From assembly GCA_050950165.1 (NCBI GenBank), contig JBMNHC010000001.1, positions 325,724-389,723 of the forward strand: a stretch of 64,000 nt of DNA, written 5' to 3'. The stretch's first letter is position 1; the number at the start of each line of letters is the position of its first letter. Positions 6,201 through 54,130 of the stretch are shown here, piece by piece. A program made the translations under genes and the position numbers. The notes below the pieces were generated by a model. It saw only the letters and a program-made list of their open reading frames with translations, made no database searches and was not told the DNA's origin. The DNA is from Candidatus Dojkabacteria bacterium (GTDB lineage Bacteria > Patescibacteriota > Dojkabacteria > SC72).

Positions 6201-6287
6201 GGAGAGATGCCTGAGCGGTCGAAAGGACACGCTTGGAGAGCGTGCGTACATTAACTTGTACCGTGGGTTCGAATCCCACTCTCTCCG
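6201..6287 (+). tRNA. tRNA-Ser (anticodon GGA), long variable arm
   Basis: GGAGAGA acceptor, anticodon loop TTGGAGA, long variable arm, T-arm GTGGGTTCGAATCCCAC. Confidence 0.85.
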
Positions 6288-6418
6288 CACCAACCTATAG
6301 TATTGCTTTTCAGGGAGATTTTTAGTATAATGTAACTGTAAACTATATTGTTTACTGTTCTTTCAAAAAAAATTAGTTTAAAGGCAAAATTTCAAAACTA
6401 AAAAAAAAGGAGGTTCTT

Positions 6419-6670: not shown

Positions 6671-6678
6671 AAGAACAG

Positions 6679-6744
6679 AGCACCGAGAGGTTAGTATGAG
6701 GATATTTTTCTTCTACATATACCTATTAGGTGCTTTTTCTTTTT
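6679..6744 (+). terminator. Long imperfect hairpin plus T-tract (copy A of a duplicated about 66-nt element)
   Basis: AGCACCGAGAGGTTAGTATGAGGATATTTTTCTTCTACATATACCTATTAGGTGCTTTTTCTTTTT. It is 64/66 identical to 15720-15786. GCACC...GGTGC stem followed by a U-run. Confidence 0.6.
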
Positions 6745-8096: not shown

Positions 8097-8120
8097 TGAT
8101 ATATTTTATCAAAGAACTAT

Positions 8121-8636
8121 CTACTCCTCACTCTCTTCTGATTCTTCTCCCTCTTGGTCAATACCTAATTCTGATTCTTTAAGAGGTATGATTCTAACAA
8201 ATCTTTCTCTACCTTCTCCTACACTTTCTGTTTTTACATCATCAAAGACTTGAAGAGTAAGGTGTACTACTCTCCTGTCAGATGGTTTCATTGGAGGAAG
8301 ATCGATAGATTCTCCTAATATTCTAGCGTCATCCGCTTTCTGCATAGCAAATTTTTCTAGTTTTTCATCTCTCTCTTTTCTGTATCCACCAACATCTAAA
8401 ACAATTCTAACTTCTTTCTTTTCGTCAAAGTGTTTTCTAAGAAGTAAGCTTAGTACAAACTGCAAAGAGTCTAAGTGCTTACCGTGTCCTCCAATTAAAT
8501 ATCCAAGGTCTTCTCCTTCAAAAGAGATTTTAATATATGTAATGTCTGAAATCTCTTCTGTTTTAAGAGAATACTCTCTATCTATATTCATTAATTTTAA
8601 GAGAGTATCTAGCTCTTTCTTAACAATATCTTCCAT
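8121..8636 (-). CDS. jag: Jag/KhpB-like KH-R3H RNA-binding protein
   Basis: R3H motif LIGGHGKHLDSLQ. Located immediately downstream of yidC as in canonical yidC-jag operons. Confidence 0.75.
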   Translation of the reverse strand: MEDIVKKELDTLLKLMNIDREYSLKTEEISDITYIKISFEGEDLGYLIGGHGKHLDSLQFVLSLLLRKHFDEKKEVRIVLDVGGYRKERDEKLEKFAMQKADDARILGESIDLPPMKPSDRRVVHLTLQVFDDVKTESVGEGRERFVRIIPLKESELGIDQEGEESEESEE

Positions 8637-12438: not shown

Positions 12439-13560
12439 ATGCAATTTACATGTAATCAAGATACATTTTCTAAGTATCTGAATATTGTTAGTAGGATGGT
12501 TAGCAGTAAACCAGGATTACCAATTCTTAATAATGTTCAATTTGAAACTAAGAAAGGTAAATTGATAATTACAGCTACTGATTTGGAGATAGGGTTGAAT
12601 ACATGGATAGGAGCAGATGTTAAGTCTGAGGGTAAGATTACTGTACCTGCTAAACAGCTAACTGAATTTGTAAATAGTGTGCAGAGTGAAGTAATAGATG
12701 TAGAGCTAGATAATCAGAATTTAAATATATCTAGTACTGGAAACTTTGCAAGTTTTAATACTATGCCTGCTGAGGATTTTCCTACTGTTGCAACTATAGA
12801 TAAGCAGAAGCCTCTTCTTAGAATACCAAGAGAGTTATTAATTAAAGCTGTAAATAGAGTAGCATTTGCTGCTGCTGTTGATGATATTAAACCTGTTTTA
12901 GCAGGTATACTCCTAGAGGTATCAGGAGAGAGTATATCTTTTGTAGGGACTGATGGGTTAAGGTTGTCTAGACAGATTATCAAATTAGAATCTAATGCTC
13001 AGAGTGATATTAATATCTTAGTACCAGTTAAAGCTCTATTAGAGTTAGCACATATTGCAGGTGAGATAGGAGAGGAGAGTGATATTGAGGTATTTTTGAT
13101 TGAAGAGAGAAATCAGGTATTATTCAGATACGCAGATATTGATATTGTTTCTAGATTAATAGATGGGCAGTTTCCTGAGTATAGGCAGATTATTCCAACT
13201 GGGTATAAAACACAGGCTAAGATTGAGAAGAGTGATTTTCTTAATTCTCTTAAAATTACCAACATTATTGCTAAGAGTGTATTGGGAAATAAATTAGTAT
13301 TAGATATTGATGCAAAGGGAGATAGTATAACTCTCTCTGCAACGCAAACAGATTTAGGTAGTAACAAGAGTATATTTAAAGGTAGTATAGAAGGAGATAG
13401 TATAAAGATTGCATTTAGTTCAAGACTACTATCTGATATCTTAAATCATATAGATTCTGAAAATATTATTTTTGAGTGTAGTGAGACTGTAAAACCGGGA
13501 GTATTTAAGATTGAGGATGATCCTGACTTTGTTCACCTTGTAATGCCGATGATGCTTTAG
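12439..13560 (+). CDS. dnaN: DNA polymerase III beta sliding clamp
   Basis: 373 aa with three-domain beta-clamp organisation, immediately after dnaA/oriC. Confidence 0.85.
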   Translation: MQFTCNQDTFSKYLNIVSRMVSSKPGLPILNNVQFETKKGKLIITATDLEIGLNTWIGADVKSEGKITVPAKQLTEFVNSVQSEVIDVELDNQNLNISSTGNFASFNTMPAEDFPTVATIDKQKPLLRIPRELLIKAVNRVAFAAAVDDIKPVLAGILLEVSGESISFVGTDGLRLSRQIIKLESNAQSDINILVPVKALLELAHIAGEIGEESDIEVFLIEERNQVLFRYADIDIVSRLIDGQFPEYRQIIPTGYKTQAKIEKSDFLNSLKITNIIAKSVLGNKLVLDIDAKGDSITLSATQTDLGSNKSIFKGSIEGDSIKIAFSSRLLSDILNHIDSENIIFECSETVKPGVFKIEDDPDFVHLVMPMML

Positions 13561-18352: not shown

Positions 18353-18763
18353 GGGGGCGTAAGGCTTTCGACAGAAGTCATGGTGGTTGTTTGTCACAAA
18401 TCGTTTTTTAGTTCGTAAAACTAAAACACAGATAAGTGTAGAAAACAAACTTAACGCTTTTGCAAGTAAGCTAAAGGCTGCATTTACTGCACCTTTGTAT
18501 GCTTACAATTTTGCATAAGTCTAACTGATTTAATTCGGTTAGTGTCTAATATTTCTATCTCTAGTTAGTATATTAGATAGTCGTTACTAGAGTATATCTA
18601 CTTTCTCTTGTCGGTAGGGTATTGTAGAGGAATGTAATTACTGAGCAAAGAATACTTTTTGTTAGATTTTTTAGTATTGTTTGACTATACAAATCTAAAT
18701 ATGTTTGTAAATGACACTACTGCTAGCTTTTGGACGTGGGTTCAAATCCCACCGTCTCCACCA
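18353..18763 (+). ncRNA. ssrA: tmRNA (ssrA)
   Basis: 5' GGGGGCGTAAGGCTTTCGACAG. The 3' tRNA-like end GGACGTGGGTTCAAATCCCACCGTCTCCACCA pairs with the 5' end. The internal tag ORF ends ...APLYAYNFA-TAA at about 18456-18518, resembling the Mollicutes-type ...NFAFA tag. Confidence 0.85.
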
Positions 18764-27847: not shown

Positions 27848-27885
27848 CTGATTTAATATATTGAGATTTTCTTGTATAATAACGA

Positions 27886-28212
27886 ATGTTTATGATAACT
27901 ACAAAAATTTATGCAAATTCACTAAGTGATGCCCTAAGTGGTATTACAAATATGTCAGAGGCATCTACGGTAGGATCTTTTACAGATTCTGTCCTCTCTA
28001 TTGCTATCCCTTTAGCAGTATTTTCAGTAGTTGTCCTGCTAGCTTTCTCTGCTTATCAACTAATGACAAGTAAGGGAGATCCTGATAAATTAAAACAAGC
28101 AAAAGAGGTAATTACTAATGCAGTAATTGGTTTTCTCTTTATACTAATGTCTGTTGCTATTTTAATATTCTTAGGTAAATTGTTTGGTGTAGATATTACA
28201 AGTGGAAGGTAA
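27886..28212 (+). CDS. VirB2/TrbC-like two-helix pilin paralog 1
   Basis: Helix-loop-helix core AIPLAVFSVVVLLAFSAYQLMTSKGDPDKLKQAKEVITNAVIGFLFILMSVAILIF. Confidence 0.45.
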   Translation: MFMITTKIYANSLSDALSGITNMSEASTVGSFTDSVLSIAIPLAVFSVVVLLAFSAYQLMTSKGDPDKLKQAKEVITNAVIGFLFILMSVAILIFLGKLFGVDITSGR

Positions 28213-28531
28213 AAAGAAAAATATAATTCCTTTAGGGGTAACAATAGGGGGGTATGAGATAACAAATGTACCTGTTTTTAAATGGGATTTCTCTTCTGTA
28301 GAGGGAGTTTTAGTTTTTGTTAAGTTTCTTTTTAATACCTTTATAGGTTTATCTGCATTAGTTGCAGTAGCTATGATTATATATTCTGGCTATCTTTTCA
28401 TTACATCAGCAGGTGATGCAGAGAAGATAGAGAAAGGAAGAAAAGGATTAACTGCCGCTATTGTAGGTATGTTTATCGTCTTTATTGCAAAAGCATTAGT
28501 TCTTTTCTTACTAGAGGAGATTCTAGTTTAA
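28202..28531 (+). CDS. VirB2/TrbC-like two-helix pilin paralog 2
   Basis: LSALVAVAMIIYSGYLFITSAGDAEKIEKGRKGLTAAIVGMFIVFIAKALV. Confidence 0.45.
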   Translation: MEGKKKNIIPLGVTIGGYEITNVPVFKWDFSSVEGVLVFVKFLFNTFIGLSALVAVAMIIYSGYLFITSAGDAEKIEKGRKGLTAAIVGMFIVFIAKALVLFLLEEILV

Positions 28532-28597
28532 GATGTTGCAATGATTTTATTGTTAGCATATAATTGGGAGCTAAATATAAAATATTAAATATAAAAA

Positions 28598-28960
28598 ATG
28601 AAAAATACCTTAGCAAAAATATCAAGTGGAGTAGTTGTAGCTTATGTAGCTTTTTCTGGTTTTATAGTAAAAGCTTTTGCTCAGAAGAAAGCATCTGAAT
28701 GGTTAAATATGGGTATTGATGGAGTTGATAAGGAGTTGGATAGTTGGATTGTAACTATGCTTAACTGGGGTATTGGTTTAGCAGCATTAGTTGCAGTAGT
28801 TATGTTAATTGCAGCTGGATATCTATATATCACTGCAAGTGGTGAAGAGGCTAAGATAGAGAAAGCAACAAAGACATTAACATTTGCAATTATAGGTTTA
28901 GTTGTGTGTTTCATTGCAGTAATGTTAGTGCAGTTTGTAGTTAATAATGTGTTAAAGTAA
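28598..28960 (+). CDS. VirB2/TrbC-like two-helix pilin paralog 3 (cleavable signal peptide)
   Basis: Signal ...VKAFA|QKK, then LAALVAVVMLIAAGYLYITASGEEAKIEKATKTLTFAIIGLVVCFIAVMLV. Confidence 0.5.
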   Translation: MKNTLAKISSGVVVAYVAFSGFIVKAFAQKKASEWLNMGIDGVDKELDSWIVTMLNWGIGLAALVAVVMLIAAGYLYITASGEEAKIEKATKTLTFAIIGLVVCFIAVMLVQFVVNNVLK

Positions 28961-29007
28961 ATTGAAGGGATTGAACTAGGGCCCCAAGAGGGCCCTTTTT
29001 TATTACT

Positions 29008-29277
29008 ATGGATCTAAGTGGAATATATACAGTTAGTAGCTATGAGAATCTCTCTGCTTTTGTAATAGGGATGGTTAATTGGTTTATTAATTTTGCAGTA
29101 GTATTAACTATAATTATGATAATTGTTGCAGGTTTTCAATATATGACCTCTATGGGAGATGAGAAAAAGATATCTGCTGCAAACAGGTCTCTAATATTTT
29201 CTCTGATAGGTATGATACTGGTATTCTTAGCACCATCTGTTATACAATTTGTAATAGATAACTTTTTAAGTAAGTAA
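29008..29277 (+). CDS. VirB2/TrbC-like two-helix pilin paralog 4
   Basis: AVVLTIIMIIVAGFQYMTSMGDEKKISAANRSLIFSLIGMILVFLAPSVI. Confidence 0.45.
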   Translation: MDLSGIYTVSSYENLSAFVIGMVNWFINFAVVLTIIMIIVAGFQYMTSMGDEKKISAANRSLIFSLIGMILVFLAPSVIQFVIDNFLSK

Positions 29278-29278
29278 G

Positions 29279-29596
29279 TTGGTAGGAAATATTGTATTAC
29301 TGATTAGTAAAGTTCTTGCTTCACCAGTATACGCTCAACGTGGAGAGAGTCGACCTCCAGAGATTGGAGACATATTTGGTCCCATTGAAAATCTTTTTGG
29401 ATATATATTTCCAGTAGGAGCCATAATTGCTGTAGGTATGATAATCTACGGTGGATATATGTGGATTATCTCAGGTGGAGATCCTGCAAAGAAGCAACTA
29501 GCACAAGGAACCCTTACATGGGCATTACTTGGTTTAATATTCCTTTTTATCATTAAGGCTGTTTTAACAGTAGTTCTTAATGCTATAGAAGGGTAG
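29279..29596 (+). CDS. VirB2/TrbC-like two-helix pilin paralog 5 (signal peptide ...SPVYA|QRGE)
   Basis: VGAIIAVGMIIYGGYMWIISGGDPAKKQLAQGTLTWALLGLIFLFIIKAVL. Confidence 0.5.
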   Translation: MVGNIVLLISKVLASPVYAQRGESRPPEIGDIFGPIENLFGYIFPVGAIIAVGMIIYGGYMWIISGGDPAKKQLAQGTLTWALLGLIFLFIIKAVLTVVLNAIEG

Positions 29597-29632
29597 CTTG
29601 GCGTTTTCTCTACACATGCTATAATTTATCCA

Positions 29633-31465
29633 ATGTCTAGCCGTAAAGCTGCTCAACAATTTATACTCCTCTTAATATTCTTCTCTCTCTTGCTCTTTAG
29701 GGGTGTATTCCCTGTATATTCTAATACGATAGAGCAATTAGAAAGTGAAATAAACAAGAAAAACGAAGAACTAAATAGAAATAGAACAGTTCTTTCTGAG
29801 ATAGAGAAGAGGATAAAAGAGATCAATAACAGTAAATATCCATTAGTAGAGAAGGTTAATCTTTTGAATAAAGAGATTAGTAAATTACAAGAGGCTATCG
29901 ATTTAAAGAGTGCTGAAATAGAACAGAAGTTAGAACTAATTTCAGAGAAAGAAGAACTTCTTAGTAAAAAGAAAGAGCTCTTTGATATGGTATCTACCAA
30001 GCTATATATGGAATCCAGATATACTAATGTTCATATATTTTTCTCTTTTGAGAATTTAGAGAATCTTTTACAGAACCTTTTTGTAAAGAAGACAGCGATA
30101 GGGATACTGAAAGAAGATATTGAGAAAATCAATTGGGAATTTACATCTCTAAATCAAATGAAGCGGGAATTAGAGCAGGAGAAAGTACAACTAGATACCC
30201 AGAAGAAAGATTTAGATGATTCATATGCTTTAGTACTAAAGGAGAAGAACAAGTTGCAAAAAGAACTTAATGCTCAGGTAGCAGCTAAGAAGAGTGTAAC
30301 AAGGAGAATAAATGGACTTAGTGCAACACTCTCTGATTTGCAGTACCAACTTTTAATTTCAAGACAGGGAGGAACATATGTAAATATTAATTCTGTTCCT
30401 GCTTCTGGAGATTACAATTCTACATTAGCTGGTTTTAATGCTAATGCTCCTAGTGGGACATTTGCTGTCTTTTCAATCGGTGCGTATACACATAGAAACG
30501 GAATGAGTCAGTGGGGAGCTAGAGCTAGAGCTGATGCAGGTCAAAATTACCAACAGATTCTCTCTGCATACTATCCTGGAACTACTCTTGCTAACGGTAC
30601 TATGAATAATATAACTGTTAAATTTTGTGACAAGTGGGTCTCTGGTAAAACTTGTAGTCAATGTGCTGTTGCAATAAGGAGTGCTACCTATAATTTTGAA
30701 TATGACTATCTATATCGCTTAGGAGAGATGCCTGAGTATTTTCCGACGGAAGCCTTAAAGGCTCAAGCGATATCTGCAAGAACATACGCTTTGAATGCGA
30801 CTAACTATGGAAAAAACAGTATTTGGGGAGATGAGTGTGGTCAGGTTATCGCTGGTCAAAAACTGGGAACTTGGAAGACCGCAGTTGATGCAACAAGAGG
30901 GGTAGTAATGAATAAAAATGGAAGAGTTTTTTCTTCTCAATATGCAGCAGTGCACGGTGGATGGGGTAATCAGATTGGCTGGGACACTACAGATGGAACA
31001 GGTAATGGTGACTGGATGAGTAGAGCGTGGGATAGAATATCAAATGTCTCTTGGTTTTATAAAATATGGTATAGAAAAACATATAGTGAGAGTAGCTCTA
31101 CTTGTGGTAGAAACCCCTGGTTAACACAAGCAGAGATGGCAGATCTGATAAATATATATCAGATATGGAAAGCTAGTGGCGGAAATGACCCTAGAATATA
31201 TCCCGTTATTGATGCTTGTCATACTAACAAAGGGCAGTATACACATGCAGAAGCTAAATCTCTTGCAACTAAGCCAGTTAGTTCTGTATCTTCGGTAGCA
31301 GTTTCGAATAGTAATGGTTCTAGTGGAACTGTAATATTTGGTACTAATGCAGGAGTTATCTCTATGAGTGCTAATGAGTTTAAAACAATTTACAACTTAC
31401 GAGCTCCTGGACATTTAAGAATTCCTCAGAGTGGGTTTGTTCATATTAATATTCACAAGAAGTAA
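29633..31465 (+). CDS. Secreted coiled-coil protein with a C-terminal SpoIID/LytB-type peptidoglycan-hydrolase domain
   Basis: Signal peptide, about 250 aa of heptad-rich coiled coil, then HRNGMSQWGARARADAGQNYQQILSAYYPGT and ...AQAISARTYAL, which are SpoIID/LytB signatures. Confidence 0.6.
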   Translation: MSSRKAAQQFILLLIFFSLLLFRGVFPVYSNTIEQLESEINKKNEELNRNRTVLSEIEKRIKEINNSKYPLVEKVNLLNKEISKLQEAIDLKSAEIEQKLELISEKEELLSKKKELFDMVSTKLYMESRYTNVHIFFSFENLENLLQNLFVKKTAIGILKEDIEKINWEFTSLNQMKRELEQEKVQLDTQKKDLDDSYALVLKEKNKLQKELNAQVAAKKSVTRRINGLSATLSDLQYQLLISRQGGTYVNINSVPASGDYNSTLAGFNANAPSGTFAVFSIGAYTHRNGMSQWGARARADAGQNYQQILSAYYPGTTLANGTMNNITVKFCDKWVSGKTCSQCAVAIRSATYNFEYDYLYRLGEMPEYFPTEALKAQAISARTYALNATNYGKNSIWGDECGQVIAGQKLGTWKTAVDATRGVVMNKNGRVFSSQYAAVHGGWGNQIGWDTTDGTGNGDWMSRAWDRISNVSWFYKIWYRKTYSESSSTCGRNPWLTQAEMADLINIYQIWKASGGNDPRIYPVIDACHTNKGQYTHAEAKSLATKPVSSVSSVAVSNSNGSSGTVIFGTNAGVISMSANEFKTIYNLRAPGHLRIPQSGFVHINIHKK

Positions 31466-31506: not shown

Positions 31507-32139
31507 ATGATAGAAGAGAGTAAAAGAGTACCTAGAAAATTTCGTAAATCAAACAAGACATTCGTACAAAGAGTTTTCCACGAACAAGAAGATAAGCATA
31601 CATTAGGGTTCTTAGCATTCCCTAAAAGAGTAAGTTTCTTTGGTAAAGATAGCGATGAAGATATTGTATTCATTGCTAGAAAACATTGGATAGCGTATGT
31701 ACCAGATCTCCTCTTTATCCTTCTCGTTCTTTTACTACCGCTTCTCCTGTTTTTGCTTTCTACAAACTTTGCACTAAAGACATCTCCAGCATTGCACTTA
31801 GGAGTTCTATTGCTTAGTGTAGGTGTTGCGTGGACACTAGCAACCACAACTCTTCTGAAATGGTATTACACTGTACATATAGTGACAGATCAAAGAATTA
31901 TAATCATCCAGATGAACAGTGCACTTTACCACTCGTACTCTGAAGCTCAGCTAGAAAAAATAGAGGATATTAATCATAGGCATGTTGGTTTCCTTGGTAC
32001 CTTTTTTGATGTAGGTAATTTAGATGTTGATACTGCAGGACACGGTGTAGATTTCACACTTAATATGCTTCCTAGACCAAGAGAGATACAAGATATATTA
32101 AATGACTTGCTTGAAATGAAGCAGAAAGGAGAGATTTAA
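31507..32139 (+). CDS. Membrane protein with a bacterial PH (bPH_2/YdbT-like) domain
   Basis: Two TM segments (LLFILLVLLLPLLLFLL...) followed by YYTVHIVTDQRIIIIQ, which is the bPH_2 core. Confidence 0.5.
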   Translation: MIEESKRVPRKFRKSNKTFVQRVFHEQEDKHTLGFLAFPKRVSFFGKDSDEDIVFIARKHWIAYVPDLLFILLVLLLPLLLFLLSTNFALKTSPALHLGVLLLSVGVAWTLATTTLLKWYYTVHIVTDQRIIIIQMNSALYHSYSEAQLEKIEDINHRHVGFLGTFFDVGNLDVDTAGHGVDFTLNMLPRPREIQDILNDLLEMKQKGEI

Positions 32140-32140
32140 T

Positions 32141-32398
32141 ATGAAAGATATTACAAAACAAATCTTTGACGAAAGTTTTAAAGTAGATGTTAATTTTGTA
32201 GACTTACTTAAAATACCTCTAGTTATACTGTTCTTAGGCAATATCTTTTACTCCCTGATGCTCTCTTTGAAGATTAAAATATTAATAGATACAGTGGAAG
32301 CAGAGGGAAACTCAAAAATTAAGAAACTGGTATATCTTAATCTCATTCTATCCATATTTATTGGTATTGTAGGTACCTTTATCATTATTTTAAGCTAA
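32141..32398 (+). CDS. Small 2-TM membrane protein (85 aa)
   Basis: ORF plus hydrophobicity only. Confidence 0.3.
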   Translation: MKDITKQIFDESFKVDVNFVDLLKIPLVILFLGNIFYSLMLSLKIKILIDTVEAEGNSKIKKLVYLNLILSIFIGIVGTFIIILS

Positions 32399-32403: not shown

Positions 32404-34650
32404 ATGTCTCTATCTGCTTTACAGTATTTAAACAACTCTAATGAGAATAAATCTTTTATCGGAGTATTCCATTACACAAGACCTGTTAGAAGTAAACATG
32501 AAGAGTCTGTAGAGATCTACGGCTTACTCTCTATTAATAGCCCTATCGATATACCTGGACAAAACATTGCTAAATTTGCTTGGGACGGCCTAGTAGATGG
32601 TTTTGAATATTCGAATGAAGATTCCATGAATGGAGCTTTAAAAAGTGGATTAAAAGAGTCTACAAGGAGAGTAAAACAGTTAATTGTAAATGATAAAGAG
32701 ATCTCTATCCATGGAGTAGATATACATTTCTGTGTGTTTGTATCTACACCTGCAGGTCTCTATGTAGGCTCTATCGGAGAATCAGATATATATGTGTACA
32801 AGAAAGACAAAATTGTAGATATTTCTGAGATGTTAAAGAAGAATAACGCTAATACGGCAGGTTTGGCTTTGGAAGAGGGAGATCTACTTTTCTGTTCAAC
32901 AGAGTCTTTTCTTAAAAAGAATATGGAGAAATTAATAGGACTTAAGAGCAAAGAAGAGATATTAAAGACCTTAGATGATGTAGCTCATCTTCTCTCTGCA
33001 GGAGAAGGACTGTTAATCTTTGCTAAAGGAGAAGAGGAGATAGAGGAAGAAAATATCGTAGTAGAAGAGGTTGTAGTATCTGTTGAGGAGGAGATAGTGC
33101 CAGAAGCAGAAGTGGGTATTTTGGAACCTCCTAAGGAGAGAGATTTAAAGAGTGTTCTCTCATCTTTCTTTTCTAAAGTTTCTAAACCGTTTACTAAAAT
33201 TAAGCTCCCCAAATTGAAATTTAAAGAGTTCTTTAACAAGGTATTTACCTTTGTTAAACAGAAAACATCTCTGCTTTTTACTAAGGTAGGGGAAGGACTA
33301 AAGAAGAACAAACAGTTTAAAAAGATATTTGCAAAGATATCTCAATCTAAGCCTAATGTTGGTAAAAAAGAAGAGTTTAAAGGCTTTACAGTAGATGGAT
33401 ACAAAGTTAGAAGCAAGAAGGTAGAGAGGTTTAGAATAGCGATACTTGTTTTAGTAGGTATTGTATTACTTGTAGGTGGAGTTAAGTTTACCATAGATCA
33501 GAAAGAAGCAAGAGCAATTAGTAATGAGGCAAATAGAATCTTTACAATGGTTGGAGATCTTCTGTCTAAAGCAGAAGAGAAGAGTAGAACAGATGCTACA
33601 GGAGCAGGAACATTTCTTCTTCGTGCAGAAAATGAACTAGAGAAAGTTCCTGTGGGATTAAGTAAGAAGGATGAGGCTAAACGAGATAATTTAGAAGGTA
33701 AGGTTCTGGGTATTCAAGACACACTTTACAAAAGGGTAGGGGTAGATGAATCTAGTGGATCGATAGAGTCATTCTTAACAACAAGACTTGCCTTTGGAGA
33801 GGGTTCTAAACCAACAGATATTGTAATATATCAGGATGACAACAACAACGAATATCTACTTGTTGTTGACTCAGGTCTTAAAGGTGTTTTTAGAGTCTCC
33901 CTTTATGACAAAGAAGTAAAGAAACTTCCTGATACAGAAAAAATATTGCAAGATCCTCGTATGATATATGTTGGTAAGTCTGGTATTTTCGTATTAGATT
34001 ACAAAGTTGGTGTTGTTAGAGCAAAGTATACTTCAGATGGTTGGTTTGAAAACTTTACTAAGTTAACAGGTCTTAGTATTGATAATATTGGTGCTGGTGA
34101 TATCTCAGAGTTTGCTGTTTTAACATCAACAGACAATGTATATGTATTAGATAGATCAACTTCGTCTTTACTTAAATCTACTAATGTTGGTTCTGGATAT
34201 GGGCTTTCTCACGCATATTTGAAAAATGATGCATTTAAAGAAGCAAATGATATTTTAGCAGATTTAAGTATATATATATTAACTTCTGGTGAGAACGGTT
34301 TACACAGATATGTCTACAGCTATTTCGAACAGAAACAGGTTCCTGCTCCACTAGAAGTTTTAGGTTTAGAAGGGAATTTTAAAAACCTAGCTTACGGATA
34401 TACTAGGAAGGAACTTACTTTTGACCTCTATCTTTTTGATGATCAGGATAGGAGAGTAATGCGTTTTGAAAAGCCTATCGAGGGAGGAGGTGAGATTAGA
34501 CATCCTAATCAGATTGTACTTATTAACCAATATCTTTACAGAGGTGATAGAGAAGATGTATGGAAAGATGTTAAGGATTTGGCGGTGGATAAGGAACAGA
34601 AATATATATATATTCTGGATGCCTCAGTAGTTTGGAAGGTTAGAATGTAG
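32404..34650 (+). CDS. Large bitopic hypothetical protein (748 aa), central TM
   Basis: TM IAILVLVGIVLLVGGV at about aa 350. The N-terminal about 200 aa weakly resemble a PP2C/SpoIIE-like fold (low confidence). The C-terminal about 400 aa is a beta-rich extracytoplasmic domain. Confidence 0.4.
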   Translation: MSLSALQYLNNSNENKSFIGVFHYTRPVRSKHEESVEIYGLLSINSPIDIPGQNIAKFAWDGLVDGFEYSNEDSMNGALKSGLKESTRRVKQLIVNDKEISIHGVDIHFCVFVSTPAGLYVGSIGESDIYVYKKDKIVDISEMLKKNNANTAGLALEEGDLLFCSTESFLKKNMEKLIGLKSKEEILKTLDDVAHLLSAGEGLLIFAKGEEEIEEENIVVEEVVVSVEEEIVPEAEVGILEPPKERDLKSVLSSFFSKVSKPFTKIKLPKLKFKEFFNKVFTFVKQKTSLLFTKVGEGLKKNKQFKKIFAKISQSKPNVGKKEEFKGFTVDGYKVRSKKVERFRIAILVLVGIVLLVGGVKFTIDQKEARAISNEANRIFTMVGDLLSKAEEKSRTDATGAGTFLLRAENELEKVPVGLSKKDEAKRDNLEGKVLGIQDTLYKRVGVDESSGSIESFLTTRLAFGEGSKPTDIVIYQDDNNNEYLLVVDSGLKGVFRVSLYDKEVKKLPDTEKILQDPRMIYVGKSGIFVLDYKVGVVRAKYTSDGWFENFTKLTGLSIDNIGAGDISEFAVLTSTDNVYVLDRSTSSLLKSTNVGSGYGLSHAYLKNDAFKEANDILADLSIYILTSGENGLHRYVYSYFEQKQVPAPLEVLGLEGNFKNLAYGYTRKELTFDLYLFDDQDRRVMRFEKPIEGGGEIRHPNQIVLINQYLYRGDREDVWKDVKDLAVDKEQKYIYILDASVVWKVRM

Positions 34651-34664: not shown

Positions 34665-35114
34665 TTGGGGATGAAAATATCTAACAAGAAAGCATTCTTT
34701 AATTATGAAGTCTTGGAGAGATTCGAGGCTGGCATTGTACTTAGTGGTGCAGAGGTAAAATCGATACGAGATGGTAGGTGTGATTTAAAGAACTCTTTTG
34801 TAAAAATCTTAAACGATGAAGTTTGGTTGTTGAATGCTAGTATAGCAAGATACAAATATGATGGTAGTAGTGATTATGACCCAGAGAGAACAAGAAAGCT
34901 ATTAATCACTAAAAGAGAGAAAGAATATATCCAGAGTAAGATTAAACAAGGGAATTTAACTCTTGTTCCTTTGAGTGTATACACAAAGGGTGATAGAATA
35001 AAAGTTGAATTTGCTCTTGCTAGAGGTAAAAAGGGATATGAGAAGAAGAAAGCAGAGAAAGAGAAGGATTTGGATAGAGATCTACTATACGACAAGAGGG
35101 AATATATGGTATAA
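34665..35114 (+). CDS. smpB: SsrA-binding protein SmpB
   Basis: FFNYEVLERFEAGIVLSGAEVKSIR...LLITKREK...GNLTLVPLSVYTKGDRIKVEFALARGKK is the SmpB signature. Confidence 0.9.
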   Translation: MGMKISNKKAFFNYEVLERFEAGIVLSGAEVKSIRDGRCDLKNSFVKILNDEVWLLNASIARYKYDGSSDYDPERTRKLLITKREKEYIQSKIKQGNLTLVPLSVYTKGDRIKVEFALARGKKGYEKKKAEKEKDLDRDLLYDKREYMV

Positions 35115-35125
35115 TGTTATAGGTT

Positions 35126-35481: not shown

Positions 35482-38001
35482 ATGAAATCATATATATTTA
35501 GTCAAATAGGGCCGGTTCCTTCCAAAAAAGATGAGGAGGTAATAGTTGGTAATTCTACTCAATACCCAAAGGATTCGTATGGAGAGAGTAGTGGCTTTAG
35601 TATAAATATCCCATGGGGATGGATTTTAGGATTGTTGGTATTTTTAGGAATATGTGTTCTTCTTGTTCTAAAAGTAAGAAAGAGACTACTTCAGAGGGAT
35701 AGAGATGATAAAGCTAAGGAGTGGGTACTCTACGAAGTAAGAGTTCCTAGGGGTAATGAGACAGAGATTGGTGTTGCAGAGAAGATGTTTGCTAATCTTG
35801 TTGGTATCGGCGGTAAAGGTAAGGGTATTGCGGAGAAATTTACAGTAAGTAACAATATTAGTTTTGAGATAATGGCAGAACCAGGTGCAATTAGGTTCTT
35901 TGTATATACTCCTCAAAAGTTAGCAGATTTGGTAGAGAAACAGATTCTCGGTTCATACCAAGATGCAGAGGTTAAGAAGGCAGATGATTATAATATTTTT
36001 AATAAGGATTCTAAAGTCGTATTTGCTAGACTAAAATTAGATGATGAACCGTACTGTCCAATTAAAGTCTTTGAAGATTTTACTGGTGACCCTCTTGCAA
36101 ATGTTTTAAGTACCCTAAGTAAGATGTCTGAAGGAGAGGGAGCTATGATTCAGATCTTAGTCTCTCCTACGGATAATAAATGGCAGAAAAATGGAGCTAG
36201 TTTTGTTAAAAAGGTAGAGAACAACAACAGTGATCCTGAGAAGAAAAAGATGAATGTTAGTCAGGAGAAGCTACAAGGTATTAGTAAGAAGGTTGCAAAG
36301 AATGGTTTTAATGTAGATATTAGAATTGTTACATCTGCATCAAATGAATCTTTAGCAAAGATGCATTTGGATAATATAATTGGAGCTTTTGATCAATTTA
36401 GTAATCCTGGGATAAATAGGTTTAAGAAAGTAGATATAAAGGGGAAAGCTAAAGAGAGAGAGTTTATGTTTGATGTAATATACAGACGAAGTATATTGGA
36501 GGGAGGTGCAACATTGAATGTAGAAGAGCTTGCTACCATATATCATTTTCCTAACAAAGATATTACTACTCCAAATATTAACTGGTTGTTGGCAAGAGAA
36601 GTGTTGGCGGATAATAGTATTAGTTCGGATATTAATTCTAAGGATACAGTATGGGTAGGTAATAACATATTTAGAGATAAAGTAAAGGCTATATGTTTTA
36701 GAAGAGATGATAGAAGAAGGCATACCTACATATTAGGTCAAACTGGTACTGGTAAGTCTTGGTTGCTTGTCAGAATGATAGTTCAGGATATATACAATGG
36801 TGATGGTGTCTGTTTTATAGATCCACACGGGCAAACGGCAGAGATGGTTTTAGAGCGTATTCCTCCTGAGAGAGTAGAGGATGTTATATATTTTAATGCT
36901 GCAGATTTTGAAAGACCTTTCGGTTTAAACATTATGGAGTACTACAATGAGCAGCATATGCATCAGATAGTTAATAGCTTCATAGGGTTATTGATTCGTC
37001 TTTTTGACCCTCATAATCAAGGTTATGTTGGGCCTATGATGCAACAGGCTGTTAGAAATGCAATGTTAACAGCTATGAGTGAGAAAGGCTCTACATTGAT
37101 AGAGGTAGTTAGAATATTGCAAGATGAGAAATGGGTTCAGGAGAAATGGTTACCACTAATTAAGGATGAGTTAGTACGCAGGTATTGGGTAGACCAGGTT
37201 GCTAAAACAGATCAAAAGACAAAATCAGAGAGTTTAGGCTACTTCATTTCCAAATTTGATAAGTTTACAACTAACTTAGCTATTAGAAATATAATAGGGC
37301 AATCTGAGTCATCATTCGATTTTAGAGAAATTATGGACCAAGGTAAAATATTAGTAGTCAATCTTGCTAAAGGTTTGCTTGGTGAAGAGAATATGTCTTT
37401 TTTGGGATTACTTTTAGTACAGAAGATATTGGCTGCAGCTCTAAGTAGAGAGAATATTCCTGAGGATCAAAGAAGAGACTTCTTCTTCTATGCTGATGAG
37501 TTTCAAAACTTTGCAACAGACGAGTTTATGTCAATACTTTCTGAAGCAAGAAAGTATAAATTAAACCTAACTCTTGCTCATCAATATATTGGTCAATTAC
37601 CAGAAAATATTAAGAATGCTGTTTTCGGTAATGTAGGATCTCTTTTTATCGCTAGGTGTGGTACTGAGGATGCAACATTTTTAGAACCACAGTTTGAGTC
37701 ATATGTAACAGCTTCTGACTTAATAAATCAGGCTATGGCTCATTACTATGTAAAGATGTTAAACAAAGGAGTGTATCAGAGTCCATTTTCGTTAAATACA
37801 CTATACGGTCCTAAGTTCCCAGAGAGTGGTTTTGATATGCCAACTAATTCAGAGGTTGCTCGAATTATTAAAGAGATGTCTAGACTTAAGTATGGTAGAG
37901 ATGTAAATATTGTAAATTTGGATATTAACAAACGATCAGAATTAGAGAAGAAAGAAGAACCTGCTACAAATAGTGATGCGTTTCCTCCTTTAGGCATTTA
38001 G
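35482..38001 (+). CDS. Type IV secretion coupling-protein-like ATPase (VirD4/TraD/TrwB family) with an N-terminal TM and extra N-domain
   Basis: RRHTYILGQTGTGKSWLL...CFIDPHGQTAE is the T4CP Walker A/DPKG-type block. FFFYADEFQNF...LTLAHQYIGQLPENIKNAVFGNVGSLFIARCG corresponds to the Walker B/TraG_C region. TM WGWILGLLVFLGICVLLVL. Confidence 0.65.
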   Translation: MKSYIFSQIGPVPSKKDEEVIVGNSTQYPKDSYGESSGFSINIPWGWILGLLVFLGICVLLVLKVRKRLLQRDRDDKAKEWVLYEVRVPRGNETEIGVAEKMFANLVGIGGKGKGIAEKFTVSNNISFEIMAEPGAIRFFVYTPQKLADLVEKQILGSYQDAEVKKADDYNIFNKDSKVVFARLKLDDEPYCPIKVFEDFTGDPLANVLSTLSKMSEGEGAMIQILVSPTDNKWQKNGASFVKKVENNNSDPEKKKMNVSQEKLQGISKKVAKNGFNVDIRIVTSASNESLAKMHLDNIIGAFDQFSNPGINRFKKVDIKGKAKEREFMFDVIYRRSILEGGATLNVEELATIYHFPNKDITTPNINWLLAREVLADNSISSDINSKDTVWVGNNIFRDKVKAICFRRDDRRRHTYILGQTGTGKSWLLVRMIVQDIYNGDGVCFIDPHGQTAEMVLERIPPERVEDVIYFNAADFERPFGLNIMEYYNEQHMHQIVNSFIGLLIRLFDPHNQGYVGPMMQQAVRNAMLTAMSEKGSTLIEVVRILQDEKWVQEKWLPLIKDELVRRYWVDQVAKTDQKTKSESLGYFISKFDKFTTNLAIRNIIGQSESSFDFREIMDQGKILVVNLAKGLLGEENMSFLGLLLVQKILAAALSRENIPEDQRRDFFFYADEFQNFATDEFMSILSEARKYKLNLTLAHQYIGQLPENIKNAVFGNVGSLFIARCGTEDATFLEPQFESYVTASDLINQAMAHYYVKMLNKGVYQSPFSLNTLYGPKFPESGFDMPTNSEVARIIKEMSRLKYGRDVNIVNLDINKRSELEKKEEPATNSDAFPPLGI

Positions 38002-46027: not shown

Positions 46028-46399
46028 ATGGAGGAAAATCAGAAAGATATATCAATATGGTCGGTTCTCTCTAACATATTAGGATTCCTTTTTGGAGCTT
46101 TTCTAATATACAAAATCATTAATAGAAAGAGAGGTTTTGAGAAAACAGAAAAATTTATCCAAAGACCACCCATCGATGAAGTAAAGAAAGTAAAAAAGAT
46201 ATATCCAATCAATGAGAGACAATACAAGATATTGGCTACGATAAGTAAGAAAGGCACAATGACACCATCAGAGATATATGCACTTGAACCAAATCTCTCT
46301 ACTAGAACATTAAGAAGAGATATGGATGTGTTAGTAGAGCAAGGAGTGGTTAGACAAGAAGGTAGTACCAAATCGACTAAATACACATATATTGGATAA
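46028..46399 (+). CDS. Small membrane-anchored winged-helix (DeoR/MarR-like HTH) protein
   Basis: N-terminal TM plus C-terminal KKGTMTPSEIYALEPNLSTRTLRRDMDVLVEQGVV. Confidence 0.4.
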   Translation: MEENQKDISIWSVLSNILGFLFGAFLIYKIINRKRGFEKTEKFIQRPPIDEVKKVKKIYPINERQYKILATISKKGTMTPSEIYALEPNLSTRTLRRDMDVLVEQGVVRQEGSTKSTKYTYIG

Positions 46400-48209
46400 T
46401 ATGGAGTTCAACGAGGTAGCAAACATATTCGAACAGATAGAGAAGACAAGCTCTAGAAATGAAATAACTAGTATACTAGCAGATTTCTATAAAAAACTTA
46501 CCAAAGAGGAAGGGCAGATACTTTCCTACATGATATTGGGTAGGGTAGCTCCATTCTTTCTTGATAGTGAATTCAACTACTCTGAAAGAAGTCTTCTTAC
46601 ATTACTAAACAACTACAGTAAGTTAAATATTCCTAGCTTTGATATTAATGAGAAAAGGATAGAGTTAGGAGATATTGGAGATACAGTAAAAGAACTTGCT
46701 GAACAAGTAGGCTTTTCATCAAAGAAACTAAGTGTAGAGGAGATATATGATACTCTTTGGGGTATCATAAATATAGAGGGAACAGGCTCTGTAGAGAGAA
46801 AAAATAGTATTGTTTTAGAAACAATACAGAAACTTTCACCATTAGAATCAAAATACTTTGTAAGAATAATATGTGGTCAGTTAAGGTTTGGTATTAATTA
46901 TAAAACATTGTTAGATACCTTCTCTTTTGTAATATCTGGTAGTAAGAGTGTGAGAGAAGAGTTGGATAGAGCGTATGGTGTTAGTGCAGATATTGGATAT
47001 ATATATTCTGTAATTGCCAAAAAGAGTGAAAAGGAAGCAGTTGAAAGCCTAAAGGATGTTAAACTACAACCAGGTATACCAGTCTTAGCAAGATTAGTAG
47101 AGAGAGTAGGTAGTTTTGAAGAGACATTTGATAGGACTGGAGTTCCTGCATTGGTTCAACCTAAGTTTGATGGTTTGAGATGTCAGATTCATAAGTATAG
47201 GGAAGAGGATTTTGAGAGAAGAGAATATCTTTGGAAGAGATATATTCAGAAAGAGTCTGTTGGTTTGTTTGGTGTTGAGTCTGATAGTGTACAGGTAAAG
47301 CTTTTTACAAGGAATTTAGAGGATGTTACAAAGATGTTTCCAGAGGTTGTGGAATCTGCAAAGTTGGTTAAAGAGTCCTCCTTCATCTTAGATTCAGAGG
47401 CAATGGGGTTTAAAGATGGTAAGTTCTTACCTTTTCAGGAAACTATGCAGAGAAGAAGAAAATATGAGGTTGAGGACAGATCTAAGGATGTTCCTGTTAA
47501 GGCTATGGTTTTTGATATTCTGTATCTAAACGGAGAAGATTTAATAGATATGGATACAAAGGAGAGGGTAGGGGTTCTTGAGAAGATTGAATTTGGTGAT
47601 AGTTTAGAGAGATGTGAGACTAAGGAAGTAGGAGATTTGGATGCTTTAATGAATGTTTTTAATGAGAATGTAGAGAGAGGGCATGAAGGAGTTATTGCAA
47701 AGATGCAAACAGGTGGATATTTACCAGGTGTTAGAAACTATGATTGGATTAAGTTAAAGAAGAGTATGTTAGGTTCCTTAGTAGATACTGTGGATCTTGT
47801 TTGTGTTGGCTACTATCACGGTTCTGGAAGGAGATCAGGTTTGGGTGTTGGTGCAATATTAGGTGCTTTGTACAATGAAGAGACTGATAGTTATGAAGCA
47901 ATTTGTAAAGTTGGTACTGGTTTTAGTGATGAACAGCTAAGAAATATTAAGGAGCAGTTGGAATCTAAGGTAGAAGAAAGTCAGCCACAGAATGTGCTCT
48001 GTCCTGAGAATCTAAAACCTGATGTTTGGATATATCCAGAGGTTGTTTTTGCTGTTGAGGCAGATGAGATTACTAGAAAATTAGGAGAAGAAAATATTGG
48101 TGGGGGCCTTTCACTTAGGTTTCCTAGATTAGTAGAGTGGGATAGGGATAAAAGTGCTAATGATGCTACCAGGGTAAGCGAGTTAATCAGCATGTTTAAG
48201 ATGAAGTAA
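46392..48209 (+). CDS. ATP-dependent DNA ligase
   Basis: Motif I VQPKFDGLRCQIH (KxDG), motif IV EGVIAKM, motif V DWIKLKK, and a C-terminal OB domain. Overlaps the upstream ORF by 8 nt. Confidence 0.8.
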   Translation: MDNMEFNEVANIFEQIEKTSSRNEITSILADFYKKLTKEEGQILSYMILGRVAPFFLDSEFNYSERSLLTLLNNYSKLNIPSFDINEKRIELGDIGDTVKELAEQVGFSSKKLSVEEIYDTLWGIINIEGTGSVERKNSIVLETIQKLSPLESKYFVRIICGQLRFGINYKTLLDTFSFVISGSKSVREELDRAYGVSADIGYIYSVIAKKSEKEAVESLKDVKLQPGIPVLARLVERVGSFEETFDRTGVPALVQPKFDGLRCQIHKYREEDFERREYLWKRYIQKESVGLFGVESDSVQVKLFTRNLEDVTKMFPEVVESAKLVKESSFILDSEAMGFKDGKFLPFQETMQRRRKYEVEDRSKDVPVKAMVFDILYLNGEDLIDMDTKERVGVLEKIEFGDSLERCETKEVGDLDALMNVFNENVERGHEGVIAKMQTGGYLPGVRNYDWIKLKKSMLGSLVDTVDLVCVGYYHGSGRRSGLGVGAILGALYNEETDSYEAICKVGTGFSDEQLRNIKEQLESKVEESQPQNVLCPENLKPDVWIYPEVVFAVEADEITRKLGEENIGGGLSLRFPRLVEWDRDKSANDATRVSELISMFKMK

Positions 48210-50562: not shown

Positions 50563-54130
<3,568 letters not shown>

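Follow-up and report, generated by a model that had tools for sequence, protein, structure and literature searches.

According to a published survey, CPR bacteria (Patescibacteria) have no outer membrane, and their chromosomes encode a type IV secretion system (T4SS) related to monoderm conjugation systems (PMC12102498). The same survey described 441 VirB2 arrays in Patescibacteria, containing 2–11 genes each; identity averages 25%, and the arrays often lie near dnaA (Quinonero-Coronel et al. 2025; PMC12102498). In Southlakia epibionticum, the pilin array (six genes, SEML1_0006-0019) and the T4SS are essential (PMC10633639; PMC12857230). Tubular structures observed by cryo-EM at a CPR–host interface are possibly T4SS pili (bioRxiv 10.64898/2026.06.21.733656).

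We analyzed a 64-kb stretch of the chromosome of an ultrasmall Candidatus Dojkabacteria bacterium (CPR/Patescibacteria), hereafter the window, in which a first-pass annotation had described five tandem pilin genes followed by a peptidoglycan hydrolase gene. The six open reading frames matched that annotation in coordinates (five pilins, 27886-29596; SpoIID-like gene, 29633-31465) and shared one strand, with the array approximately 16 kb from dnaA (dnaA, 10552-12015; dnaN, 12439-13560):

27886..28212, + strand: pilin 1 (orthogroup 1), 108 aa; PF18895 28.1 bits
28202..28531, + strand: pilin 2 (orthogroup 2), 109 aa, GTG start; PF18895 35.4 bits
28598..28960, + strand: pilin 3 (orthogroup 3), 120 aa; PF18895 44.1 bits, the highest of the five
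29008..29277, + strand: pilin 4 (orthogroup 4), 89 aa, no leader; PF18895 33.1 bits, TrbC 20.4 bits
29279..29596, + strand: pilin 5 (orthogroup 5), 105 aa, TTG start; PF18895 40.6 bits, PF04956 28.1 bits
29633..31465, + strand: 610-aa protein, membrane-anchored or secreted, with a coiled coil and a SpoIID/LytB-type domain

The gene arrangement is real; however, pilin arrays have already been described for Patescibacteria, and homologs of these proteins already bear the names "pilin" (NCBI) and "type IV secretory pathway VirB2 component" (JGI). Like the published arrays, this one consists of tandem divergent paralogs of the same Pfam family (22–45% identity here, approximately 25% reported) and lies near dnaA in a monoderm CPR host, with no relaxase nearby. 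Unlike them, it is not beside VirB4, VirB6 or PrgI but is flanked by a UvrD/PD-(D/E)XK helicase and the SpoIID-like enzyme, a setting that we did not find stated in the published accounts. We consider it likely that the locus is a chromosomal VirB2-like T4SS pilin array of Dojkabacteria with a neighboring SpoIID-type enzyme that cleaves glycan strands, and this was the best explanation of the data.

All five pilins exceeded the gathering score of PF18895 (T4SS_pilin, 26.6 bits) with E-values of 2e-6 to 2e-11, far beyond chance, which supports their annotation as VirB2/TrbC-like paralogs. PF04956 (TrbC/VirB2, cut-off 27.9 bits) was barely passed, by pilin 5 alone, and the scores of all five proteins were close to the cut-off of NF045849 (Mycoplasma ICE pilin-like family). 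Each pilin showed the two annotated hydrophobic helices (Kyte–Doolittle 19-residue windows, 1.9–2.95), joined by a short loop in which one G and one K are invariant. The motif G(Y/F)x(Y/F)(I/M)TSxGD assigned to the first helix proved approximate, with AYQLMTSKGD in pilin 1 and GYLYITASGE in pilin 3. Pilin 3 does contain the annotated cleavage site AFA|Q, and pilin 5 the site VYA|Q, but the hydropathy scan of the five proteins revealed a clearly hydrophobic leader only in pilin 3, that of pilin 5 being a possible one. Pilin 1 has a short N-terminus without a classical signal peptide and two transmembrane helices. Pilin 2, whose start overlaps pilin 1 by 11 nt, has an N-terminus (MEGxKK..IPLGVTIGGY) that is kept in its ortholog at locus L003. 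In the AF2 model of pilin 3, helices 4-28 (the signal-peptide-like leader), 46-79 and 84-117 were predicted, with a pLDDT of approximately 90 in the hairpin. Fold searches with the pilin model returned generic helical hairpins only, and neither VirB2 nor TraA was found in a profile search of PDB sequences.

With a peptidoglycan hydrolase following small membrane proteins, the locus superficially resembles a phage-derived lysis cassette of two-transmembrane holins and an endolysin, and the N-terminus of the 610-aa protein weakly matched an Rz-like spanin in PHROGs (E 2e-4). However, the five pilins had no holin or immunity-protein match in Pfam or PHROGs, so that the profile comparison upholds their placement among T4SS pilins; moreover, the genes are stably kept together on the chromosome, near oriC, across dozens of species, and phage structural genes were absent nearby. 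The lysis cassette is effectively refuted.

We then considered why there are five paralogs. The best inter-genome hit of each pilin was found at the same array position in 165/165 comparisons (33 species; 33/33 per pilin); that is, the paralogs are five fixed, separate, vertically inherited orthologous groups. In arrays of 6–8 genes, every extra copy belonged to group 3. The fixed set and the expansion of group 3 alone distinguish the Dojkabacteria array and go beyond published work, as we did not find either stated in the accounts of Patescibacteria arrays. The first-pass annotation had raised antigenic variation, and a cassette in which one paralog is expressed at a time, or in which recombination alters the exposed surface, has been proposed in published work from parallels with Bartonella and Anaplasma (PMC12102498). 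The low identity among the paralogs and their highly variable N-terminal segments (mean pairwise identity 0.1–0.3, compared with 0.5–0.75 in the hairpin) would suit such a cassette. However, each paralog forms its own lineage in 33/33 species, no replacement or gene conversion was seen between positions, copy number changes in group 3 only, and the pilin orthologs diverge about as fast as the neighboring SpoIID-like protein (60–63% vs 57% identity at L003; 43–51% vs 50% at L001). No DNA-level repeat was found in the array. Variation by paralog turnover is not favored by five stable, positionally orthologous lineages, and we regard it as improbable.

Consensus matches to expression signals were found around the genes, although their total numbers were no higher than in shuffled sequence:

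27853..27880, + strand: promoter-like site TTAATA-16-TATAAT (consensus match only, 10/12)
28536..28564, + strand: promoter-like site TTGCAA-17-TATAAT upstream of pilin 3 (consensus 10/12)
28978..29005, + strand: GC-rich, terminator-like hairpin (AGGGCCC-CAAGA-GGGCCCT) and then a T tract, immediately 3' of pilin 3
29598..29625, + strand: promoter-like site TTGGCG-16-TATAAT with extended TG (consensus match)

The first site ends 6 nt before the pilin 1 ATG, suggesting that the pilin 1 transcript may be leaderless or near-leaderless; the last ends 7 nt short of the SpoIID-like gene's ATG. The gap between pilins 2 and 3 is the only consistently long one within the arrays (median 67 nt). In a region of 33% GC, the stem of the hairpin after pilin 3 comprises 7 pairs, of which 6 are G-C. 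Among 33 related loci, an equivalent hairpin with a different stem sequence lies 3' of orthogroup 3 in 8, and none lies 3' of pilins 1, 2 or 5. Gene spacing and these signals together suggest that the array falls into three putative sub-units: genes 1-2, genes 4-5 and, between them, gene 3, which has a promoter-like site and a terminator-like hairpin to itself.

In the mechanism that we propose, each pilin would enter the cytoplasmic membrane as a two-helix hairpin, in pilins 3 and 5 after signal-peptidase cleavage, with its poorly conserved N-terminal segment pointing outward. A T4SS core (VirB4, VirB6 and VirB3-like proteins, which would be encoded elsewhere in the genome) would extract and polymerize the pilins into a tube or pilus leading across the wall to the host cell. 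Because group 3 is the only group that duplicates, it may provide the major, surface-exposed subunit, for which pilin 3 is the candidate, and the single-copy groups 1, 2, 4 and 5 may be specialized subunits, e.g., for initiation, tip or adaptor functions. We know of no organism in which a pilus built of PF18895 proteins has been demonstrated. Instead of building an extended pilus, the five subunits might remain in or close to the membrane and assemble into a short hetero-oligomer, a stalk or channel lining that reaches across the cell wall only, each subunit at a fixed position. Five non-interchangeable orthogroups suit a defined hetero-oligomer better than a homopolymer, three of the five pilins lack a clear cleavable leader, and classical monoderm T4SSs have no pilus (PMC12102498; PMC12857230). 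Nevertheless, we judge a stalk unlikely: duplication confined to group 3, together with its leader and own expression signals, is the pattern of a major polymerizing subunit; the N-terminal extensions of 170–400 aa that the same hairpin bears in relatives make more sense on an exposed filament; and the tubular structures at the CPR–host interface also point to one.

The 610-aa protein passed both Pfam SpoIID (43.9 vs 23 bits) and TIGR02669 SpoIID_LytB (98.9 vs 83.3), with a catalytic-type Glu at E365. It has an N-terminal hydrophobic segment (aa 10-28) followed by long predicted helices (33-244), in agreement with the coiled-coil SpoIID/LytB protein annotated directly downstream of the pilins. 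In its coiled coil the protein is similar to the FtsEX-regulated hydrolases EnvC and RipC, and the order of the SpoIID motifs is swapped relative to canonical SpoIID; these features and the persistent position of the gene next to a pilin gene likewise go beyond published work. A long helical hairpin would anchor the enzyme on the outer side of the membrane, where it would cut glycan strands locally for passage of the pilus, thereby filling the part of VirB1 in classical systems. The similarity of the coiled coil to that of EnvC suggests that activation may come from a membrane partner.

Conserved adjacency is the one observation that would link the enzyme to the pilins. A pilin gene lies ≤1 kb upstream of the SpoIID-like gene in 55/58 species-level loci, Microgenomatia-like ones among them; most of this adjacency could reflect phylogenetic inertia because the whole neighborhood is syntenic within Dojkabacteria. 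Thus, the pilins may be genuine and the SpoIID-like protein a general wall-remodeling or division hydrolase, controlled through its coiled coil like EnvC, PcsB, CwlO and RipC with FtsEX, its place beside the pilins being origin-near gene order. We hold this to be possible, though less probable than a role with the pilins. The resemblance of the coiled coil to EnvC and RipC, the name "CwlO-like" (JGI) on several homologs, the promoter-like site of the gene itself and the fixed order of the housekeeping genes uvrD and smpB in the same block speak for it. In addition, at L081 the gene neighbors two genes for class A PBPs and no pilin was detected; at L068 it neighbors a VanW/PG_binding_4 protein. 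However, no FtsEX was found in the window, and most pilin-bearing Patescibacteria lack a recognizable VirB1 (PMC12102498), leaving the role of VirB1 to be filled. Outside Dojkabacteria, pilin adjacency outlasts changed neighbors and flipped orientation (L068, L070, L072, L077 and L078; approximately 1.1 kb at L082), with 1 to 12 pilin genes beside the SpoIID-like gene and, in several Microgenomatia-like loci, pilins inverted on the opposite strand.

We also examined the genes downstream:

31507..32139, + strand: 210-aa protein, two transmembrane helices plus a bacterial-PH-like domain (bPH_2 below cut-off at 17.6 bits)
32141..32398, + strand: 85-aa two-transmembrane protein, DUF5657, found in CPR bacteria (34.7 vs 25 bits); syntenic
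32404..34650, + strand: 748-aa single-pass membrane protein; syntenic
35482..38001, + strand: 839-aa ATPase with one transmembrane helix and an FtsK/HerA-type domain (profile and PDB matches, synteny)

The 210-aa protein matched phrog_3707, a membrane-flanked domain (E 8e-6), and lies ≤1 kb downstream of the SpoIID-like gene in 53/65 loci, including the Levybacteria/Curtissbacteria loci L081 and L082. The DUF5657 protein showed no similarity to PrgI/VirB3 of pCF10. The 748-aa protein has its N-terminal half in the cytoplasm and its C-terminal half, in which NxYVLD-like motifs recur, outside the cell; it matched no family and no PDB entry, and weak, colinear similarity (E 7e-6) was seen to the L081 gene in the corresponding position. 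The ATPase (20,695 cluster representatives) has an N-terminal domain of approximately 330 aa (DUF8128 in precomputed Pfam) and passed T4SS-DNA_transf (30.1 vs 20.1 bits) and TrwB_AAD_bind (25.4 vs 20.5). The VirD4-like CD1115 model aligned over aa 406-732, whereas VirB4 models aligned only at the P-loop, and the best PDB matches were DotL and TrwB. The sole nearby T4SS-type ATPase thus appears most like the coupling proteins VirD4/TrwB/DotL. No homolog of VirB4, VirB6 or VirB3 was found within the 64-kb window, indicating that the pilins are not in a classical T4SS cluster here; VirB4 is listed as present for two Dojkabacteria assemblies in Table S1 of the survey (PMC12102498). The annotated T4SS-like apparatus in a host without an outer membrane is therefore borne out by the pilin family and the CPR host but not by a VirB4 in the window.

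Compared with VirB2/TrbC/TraA of diderm T4SSs (PF04956), the pilins are likewise small, with a leader in some, two hydrophobic helices and a short charged loop; pilin 5 reaches the family cut-off and the other four fall below. They differ in that several paralogs take the place of one major pilin and the host has no outer membrane, and neither a VirB5-like tip protein nor an adjacent VirB4 was recognized. The SpoIID-like gene, like those of the VirB1/PrgK/TcpG hydrolases, lies beside T4SS structural genes, and its product is likewise proposed to open the wall locally for a trans-envelope machine; its SpoIID/LytB-type domain is unrelated in fold to the SLT/lysozyme-like or CHAP domains of those enzymes, of which it would be an analog and not a homolog. 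It shares with SpoIID/LytB lytic transglycosylases (TIGR02669; 5I1T, 5TXU, 4RWR) the catalytic-type Glu in GEM..EALKAQA and the conserved GMSQWGA, but its sequence has the C-terminal motif ahead of the catalytic N-terminal one, an apparent circular permutation; moreover, a coiled coil of approximately 210 aa is attached to the domain, and the host is non-sporulating. Finally, in contrast to EnvC, PcsB, CwlO and RipC, the 610-aa protein carries a SpoIID-type domain in place of LytM, CHAP or NlpC/P60, and its neighbors are pilins rather than FtsEX.

The window is chromosomal and lies close to the origin, and its genes showed no prophage or plasmid context. The following landmarks were located:

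8.1-9.9 kb: YidD-like ORF, yidC and a KH/R3H (Jag-like) gene
10552-12015: dnaA
12439-13560: dnaN
18353-18763: tmRNA
48.6-54.4 kb: rRNA operon

Homologues of the pilins, of the 610-aa SpoIID-like protein and of an 839-aa ATPase downstream came from Candidatus Dojkabacteria or candidate division WS6, and our genome scan returned almost only Dojkabacteria assemblies. Our ORFs matched the coordinates of the first-pass annotation exactly, with five plus-strand ORFs of 108, 109, 120, 89 and 105 aa (pilins 1-5) at 27886-29596 and the 610-aa ORF at 29633-31465.

The first-pass annotation had read the five small proteins as VirB2/TrbC-like pilins and proposed a profile search of this reading. All five exceeded the gathering score of PF18895 T4SS_pilin (26.6 bits, whole-protein HMM), with 28.1, 35.4, 44.1, 33.1 and 40.6 bits for pilins 1 to 5 (E 2e-6 to 2e-11), and precomputed PF18895 matches were also present on their orthologues. 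The feature is thus real, and its interpretation as pilins is correct and essentially the published one. For PF04956 TrbC/VirB2 (gathering score 27.9 bits, whole-protein HMM), pilin 5 scored just over the threshold with 28.1 bits, pilins 4 and 3 fell below it with 20.4 and 16.6, and pilins 1 and 2 had no match in the Pfam search. The five pilins are also related to NCBIfam NF045849, the Mbov_0395 pilin-like conjugal transfer protein of a Mycoplasma ICE, yet their scores of 28.2-39.7 bits (E 1e-6 to 3e-10) lie under its equivalog cut-off of 40. Identity among the five was 22-45%, and a search for a DNA-level tandem repeat spanning their genes found none.

All five pilins are small and have the VirB2-type layout: a short charged loop, in which a Gly and a Lys are invariant, connects two strongly hydrophobic segments. 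The AlphaFold2 model of pilin 3 consisted of a leader helix (residues 4-28) and a hairpin (46-79 and 84-117, pLDDT about 90). The shared sequence motif proposed in the first-pass annotation was approximately right. Its two signal-peptidase sites, AFA↓Q in pilin 3 and VYA↓Q in pilin 5, exist, and these are the only two pilins with a leader-like N-terminus and an AxA-type site; however, the hydropathy scan gave a convincingly hydrophobic leader for pilin 3 only. Fold and sequence searches against solved structures were uninformative; in the PDB profile search, an alignment of 15 pilins retrieved neither VirB2 nor TraA, and its matches, with E no better than 0.017, were all helical proteins designed de novo. 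We also considered a phage cassette of holins and an endolysin. No holin match was found in Pfam or PHROGs, the proteins match T4SS pilins, and the chromosomal context is stable, with housekeeping genes and no prophage around the pilins; this candidate was therefore rejected.

Genomes were scanned with the SpoIID-like alignment, one genome per species; the window and two orthologous loci supplied the HMMs with which the resulting 80 loci were annotated. For the 33 loci whose five-gene array was complete, the best inter-genome BLASTP match lay at the same array position for every pilin (165/165), as did 89-100% of the top 15 matches, indicating that the five paralogues are five old, separately maintained orthologous groups. 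The pilins were 60-63% identical to their orthologues in one related locus (L003) and 43-51% in another (L001). The SpoIID-like protein gave similar values (57% and 50%, respectively), indicating that the pilins are not unusually fast-evolving. Where arrays contained six to eight genes, the additional genes all belonged to group 3, whose member in the window has the clearest leader among the pilins and is bracketed by two sites:

28536-28564 (+): promoter-like site of group 3
28978-29005 (+): G+C-rich hairpin with a 7-bp stem and a T tract, after group 3

A comparable hairpin followed group 3 in 8 of the 33 loci, with differing stem sequences, and none followed pilins 1, 2 or 5 among these loci. 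Within the pairs 1-2 and 4-5, the two genes touch or overlap, with a median gap of 1 nt; together with the promoter-like site and hairpin of group 3, this suggests that the array comprises three sub-units: (1,2), (3) and (4,5). TATAAT boxes only 5-8 nt before the ATG, without a Shine-Dalgarno sequence, were present at pilin 1 (27853-27885), the SpoIID-like gene (29598-29632) and a 97-aa ORF (35100-35125); judged from this spacing, they suggest that the mRNAs may be leaderless or near-leaderless.

Conservation was poor over the first 40-50 residues in all five groups (mean pairwise identity 0.1-0.3), whereas it was good over the hairpin (0.5-0.75). In some relatives, N-terminal extensions of about 170-400 aa precede the same C-terminal hairpin. 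Proteins of 239-470 aa with the PF18895 hairpin at the extreme C-terminus were encoded at six related loci (L070:8468-9730(-), L068:8107-9851(-), L074:4476-7137(+), L082:7700-8839(-), L042:2076-3074(+) and L047:9196-9915(+)), and such proteins may carry pilin-anchored surface or adhesin domains. The Woesebacteria locus L070 contained 12 consecutive pilin-family genes.

The first-pass annotation had suggested antigenic variation as one meaning of the divergent paralogues. We do not favor interchangeable antigenic variants as the reading, since the five groups appear to be separately maintained and only group 3 expands. Instead, we infer that group 3 is the major, exposed and diversifying subunit and that groups 1, 2, 4 and 5 are specialised single-copy subunits. 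With such a five-subunit set, group 3 is the protein to seek in filaments, and the others are likely minor components.

The gene directly downstream had been annotated as a secreted coiled-coil protein with a SpoIID/LytB domain, and both parts were supported. At its N-terminus, the 610-aa protein carries a hydrophobic segment, either an anchor or a signal, which is followed by about 210 residues of long helices, and it matched TIGR02669 SpoIID_LytB with 98.9 bits against the model's 83.3 and PF08486 SpoIID with 43.9 against 23. Residue E365, the presumed catalytic Glu by analogy with SpoIID, falls within the block aligned to SpoIID residues 75-108 and is invariant in 35 homologues. The order of the blocks was inverted relative to solved SpoIID, as residues 273-319 of the query correspond to SpoIID 281-326 and residues 363-396 to SpoIID 75-108; two TIGRFAM models showed the same inversion in their best-matching stretches. 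That is, the 610-aa protein departs from the canonical SpoIID order, in which the catalytic motif comes first and GHGxGMSQxGA last. The swapped arrangement relative to 5I1T and 5TXU was kept in all 35 aligned homologues. At the sequence level, this looks like a circularly permuted SpoIID domain in which the C-terminal active-site motif directly follows the coiled coil. When the C-terminus was joined to the post-coiled-coil segment, the GHG-motif half alone aligned to SpoIID, which is partial support; the case for a permutation thus comes from the order of the motifs and not from a full alignment. The protein had no Pfam or NCBIfam match to the SLT/lysozyme-like or CHAP domains of VirB1-type enzymes, and our literature search found no paper linking SpoIID to CPR (Patescibacteria) or to circular permutation.

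We assessed the association of the enzyme with the pilins in 58 species-level loci, mostly from Dojkabacteria, whose upstream sequence extended for 2.5 kb or more. A pilin gene lay within 1 kb upstream of the SpoIID-like gene in 55 of them. The gene order in Dojkabacteria was fixed: AP endonuclease, UvrD/PD-(D/E)XK helicase, pilins, SpoIID-like gene, 210-aa 2TM/bPH-like protein, DUF5657, a single-pass protein of about 750 aa, SmpB, a protein of about 100 aa and the 839-aa ATPase. Because this block includes housekeeping genes, synteny alone proves little. SmpB (34665-35114) sits inside it, between the pilins and the ATPase, with the tmRNA gene 16 kb upstream; its fixed position shows that genes in this region keep their order whatever their function. 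The single-pass protein (748 aa, 32404-34650) is conserved; its N-terminal half is cytoplasmic, whereas its C-terminal half is extracellular and carries repeated NxYVLD-like motifs. The protein had no match in Pfam, NCBIfam, PHROG or PDB sequences. DUF5657 showed no similarity to PrgI/VirB3 of pCF10.

Roughly a dozen Microgenomatia-like loci, labelled Pacebacteria, Woesebacteria, Curtissbacteria or Levybacteria, or mislabelled, are more informative. Their SpoIID-like proteins were 34-38% identical to the query, their other neighbour genes differed, and their pilin arrays ranged in size from 1 to 12. In five of these loci (L068, L070, L072, L077 and L078), the pilins were encoded divergently from the SpoIID-like gene, on the other strand and no more than about 170 bp from it; in L082 they were about 1.1 kb away. 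A dedicated VirB1-like role would account for this partnership. Alternatively, the SpoIID-like protein may be a general wall-remodelling enzyme. In the Levybacteria locus L081, no pilin was detected and two class A PBP genes lay upstream of the SpoIID-like gene; at the position of the 748-aa protein, after the SpoIID-like and bPH-like genes, this locus carried a weakly similar gene (E 7e-6). In L072, the pilins are flanked on the side opposite the SpoIID-like gene by a 1162-aa protein (4634-8122(-)) with a C-terminal lysozyme-like SLT_3 domain (PF18896), indicating that two different wall-cleaving enzymes stand beside the pilins in some lineages. We consider the odds of the dedicated VirB1-like role to be about even. 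If the enzyme does serve the pilus, its coiled coil, which would be EnvC-like, might be switched on by a membrane partner, perhaps the 748-aa protein or the T4SS itself.

Inspection of all ORFs of at least 100 aa revealed no VirB4, and no VirB6 or VirB3 turned up in the 64-kb window either; clustering with VirB4 and mating-pair-formation genes, as is typical of VirB2, was thus not seen there. The only T4SS-type ATPase nearby is the coupling-protein-like 839-aa protein (35482-38001), 5.9 kb downstream of the pilins. It matched the Pfam models T4SS-DNA_transf (30.1 bits against 20.1) and TrwB_AAD_bind (25.4 against 20.5), aligned to the VirD4-like CD1115 model over 330 residues, and had the coupling proteins DotL and TrwB as its closest PDB matches. 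VirB4 models aligned to its P-loop only (NF045975, 18.1 bits with a cut-off of 590; NF045971, 16.9 with a cut-off of 325), Pfam gave no PF03135 match, and no VirB4 chain was among the PDB matches. However, its layout of one transmembrane helix, an N-terminal domain of about 330 aa (DUF8128, precomputed) and then the ATPase is colinear with VirB4, which complicates the coupling-protein reading. In hhalign comparisons with PrgJ (VirB4) and PcfC (VirD4) of pCF10, a shallow alignment of the family matched both equally weakly and a deeper one gave E about 0.007 for both (PrgJ, 306 columns, E 0.007). These comparisons did not separate the two options, and we describe the ATPase as coupling-protein-like (VirD4/TraG/TrwB). 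Its family (DUF8128 plus an FtsK/HerA-type domain) comprised 20,695 representatives of 50%-identity clusters at E <= 1e-3, which fits the roughly two VirD4-like proteins per Patescibacteria genome reported by Quinonero-Coronel et al. 2025 (PMC12102498). The protein also strongly matched phage family phrog_5156, of unknown function (282 bits), indicating that it has relatives in phage genomes.

The first-pass annotation had held that a genome lacking any VirB4-like ATPase would speak against the pilins. The window contains none; nevertheless, the entries for two Dojkabacteria assemblies in Table S1 of that survey list VirB4 as present (PMC12102498), so the objection does not hold at the level of these entries. 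In the survey, pilins were near virB4 in 1,135 of 1,948 assemblies and away from it in about 40% (PMC12102498); separation of pilins from virB4 is therefore common in CPR.

Elsewhere in the window, the 23S rRNA gene (50563-54135) is 3,573 nt long and matched the 2,925-nt Rfam model end to end, indicating about 650 nt of insertions. Insertions in rRNA genes are often reported for CPR. An ATP-dependent DNA ligase with DNA_ligase_A_N, _M and _C all present (46392-48209) adjoins the rRNA operon beside a small HTH protein. A 1,946-aa protein (56485-62325 (-)) combines Ig-like Big_13 domains and a CarboxypepD_reg-like domain with seven repeats of the Mycoplasma-type DUF285, and a CarboxypepD_reg-like domain recurs in the 251-aa protein encoded after it (62362-63117 (-)). 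The two are probably surface proteins or adhesins.

CPR make up a substantial part of bacterial diversity, and the members that have been studied attach to host cells. Few machineries have been shown to be essential for this lifestyle; one of them, in a single cultivated species, is the T4SS with its unusual pilins: by Tn-seq, the T4SS cluster of Southlakia epibionticum, including a series of pilins, was essential for epibiotic growth (Wang et al. 2023, PMC10633639). According to a 2025 review (PMC12857230), the CPR systems are the first T4SSs of monoderms that have the "potential to elaborate conjugative pili", and a 2026 preprint describes structures of tubular shape "that may be T4SS pili", seen where a CPR cell meets its host (bioRxiv 10.64898/2026.06.21.733656). 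Homologues of our pilins in Dojkabacteria are already named "pilin" by NCBI and "type IV secretory pathway VirB2 component (pilin)" by JGI.

The survey, whose profiles included PF18895 and PF04956, covered 3,035 Patescibacteria genomes. VirB2-like pilins were found in 1,948 assemblies, and 383 assemblies contained arrays, 441 in total, each of 2-11 pilin genes and at a mean identity of 25% (PMC12102498). T4SS genes were frequently near dnaA and dnaN, VirB1 was usually absent, and host-range or antigenic versatility was proposed for the arrays (PMC12102498). All mechanistic steps beyond family membership and synteny are inferred. One reading, possible but less likely than not, is that in Dojkabacteria and related Microgenomatia a dedicated lytic transglycosylase of a circularly permuted, coiled-coil SpoIID type would supply the missing VirB1 function for a five-component pilus, with group 3 as its expandable major subunit and groups 1, 2, 4 and 5 as fixed minor ones. 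The SpoIID-like neighbour is in any case a specific candidate for opening the wall, a function for which the survey found no enzyme in most genomes. The locus belongs to the described class of CPR T4SS VirB2-like pilin arrays near the origin; what is new is modest, namely the fixed organisation of five orthologous groups with expansion of group 3 only, and the conserved partnership of the pilins with a coiled-coil, apparently permuted SpoIID-type enzyme.
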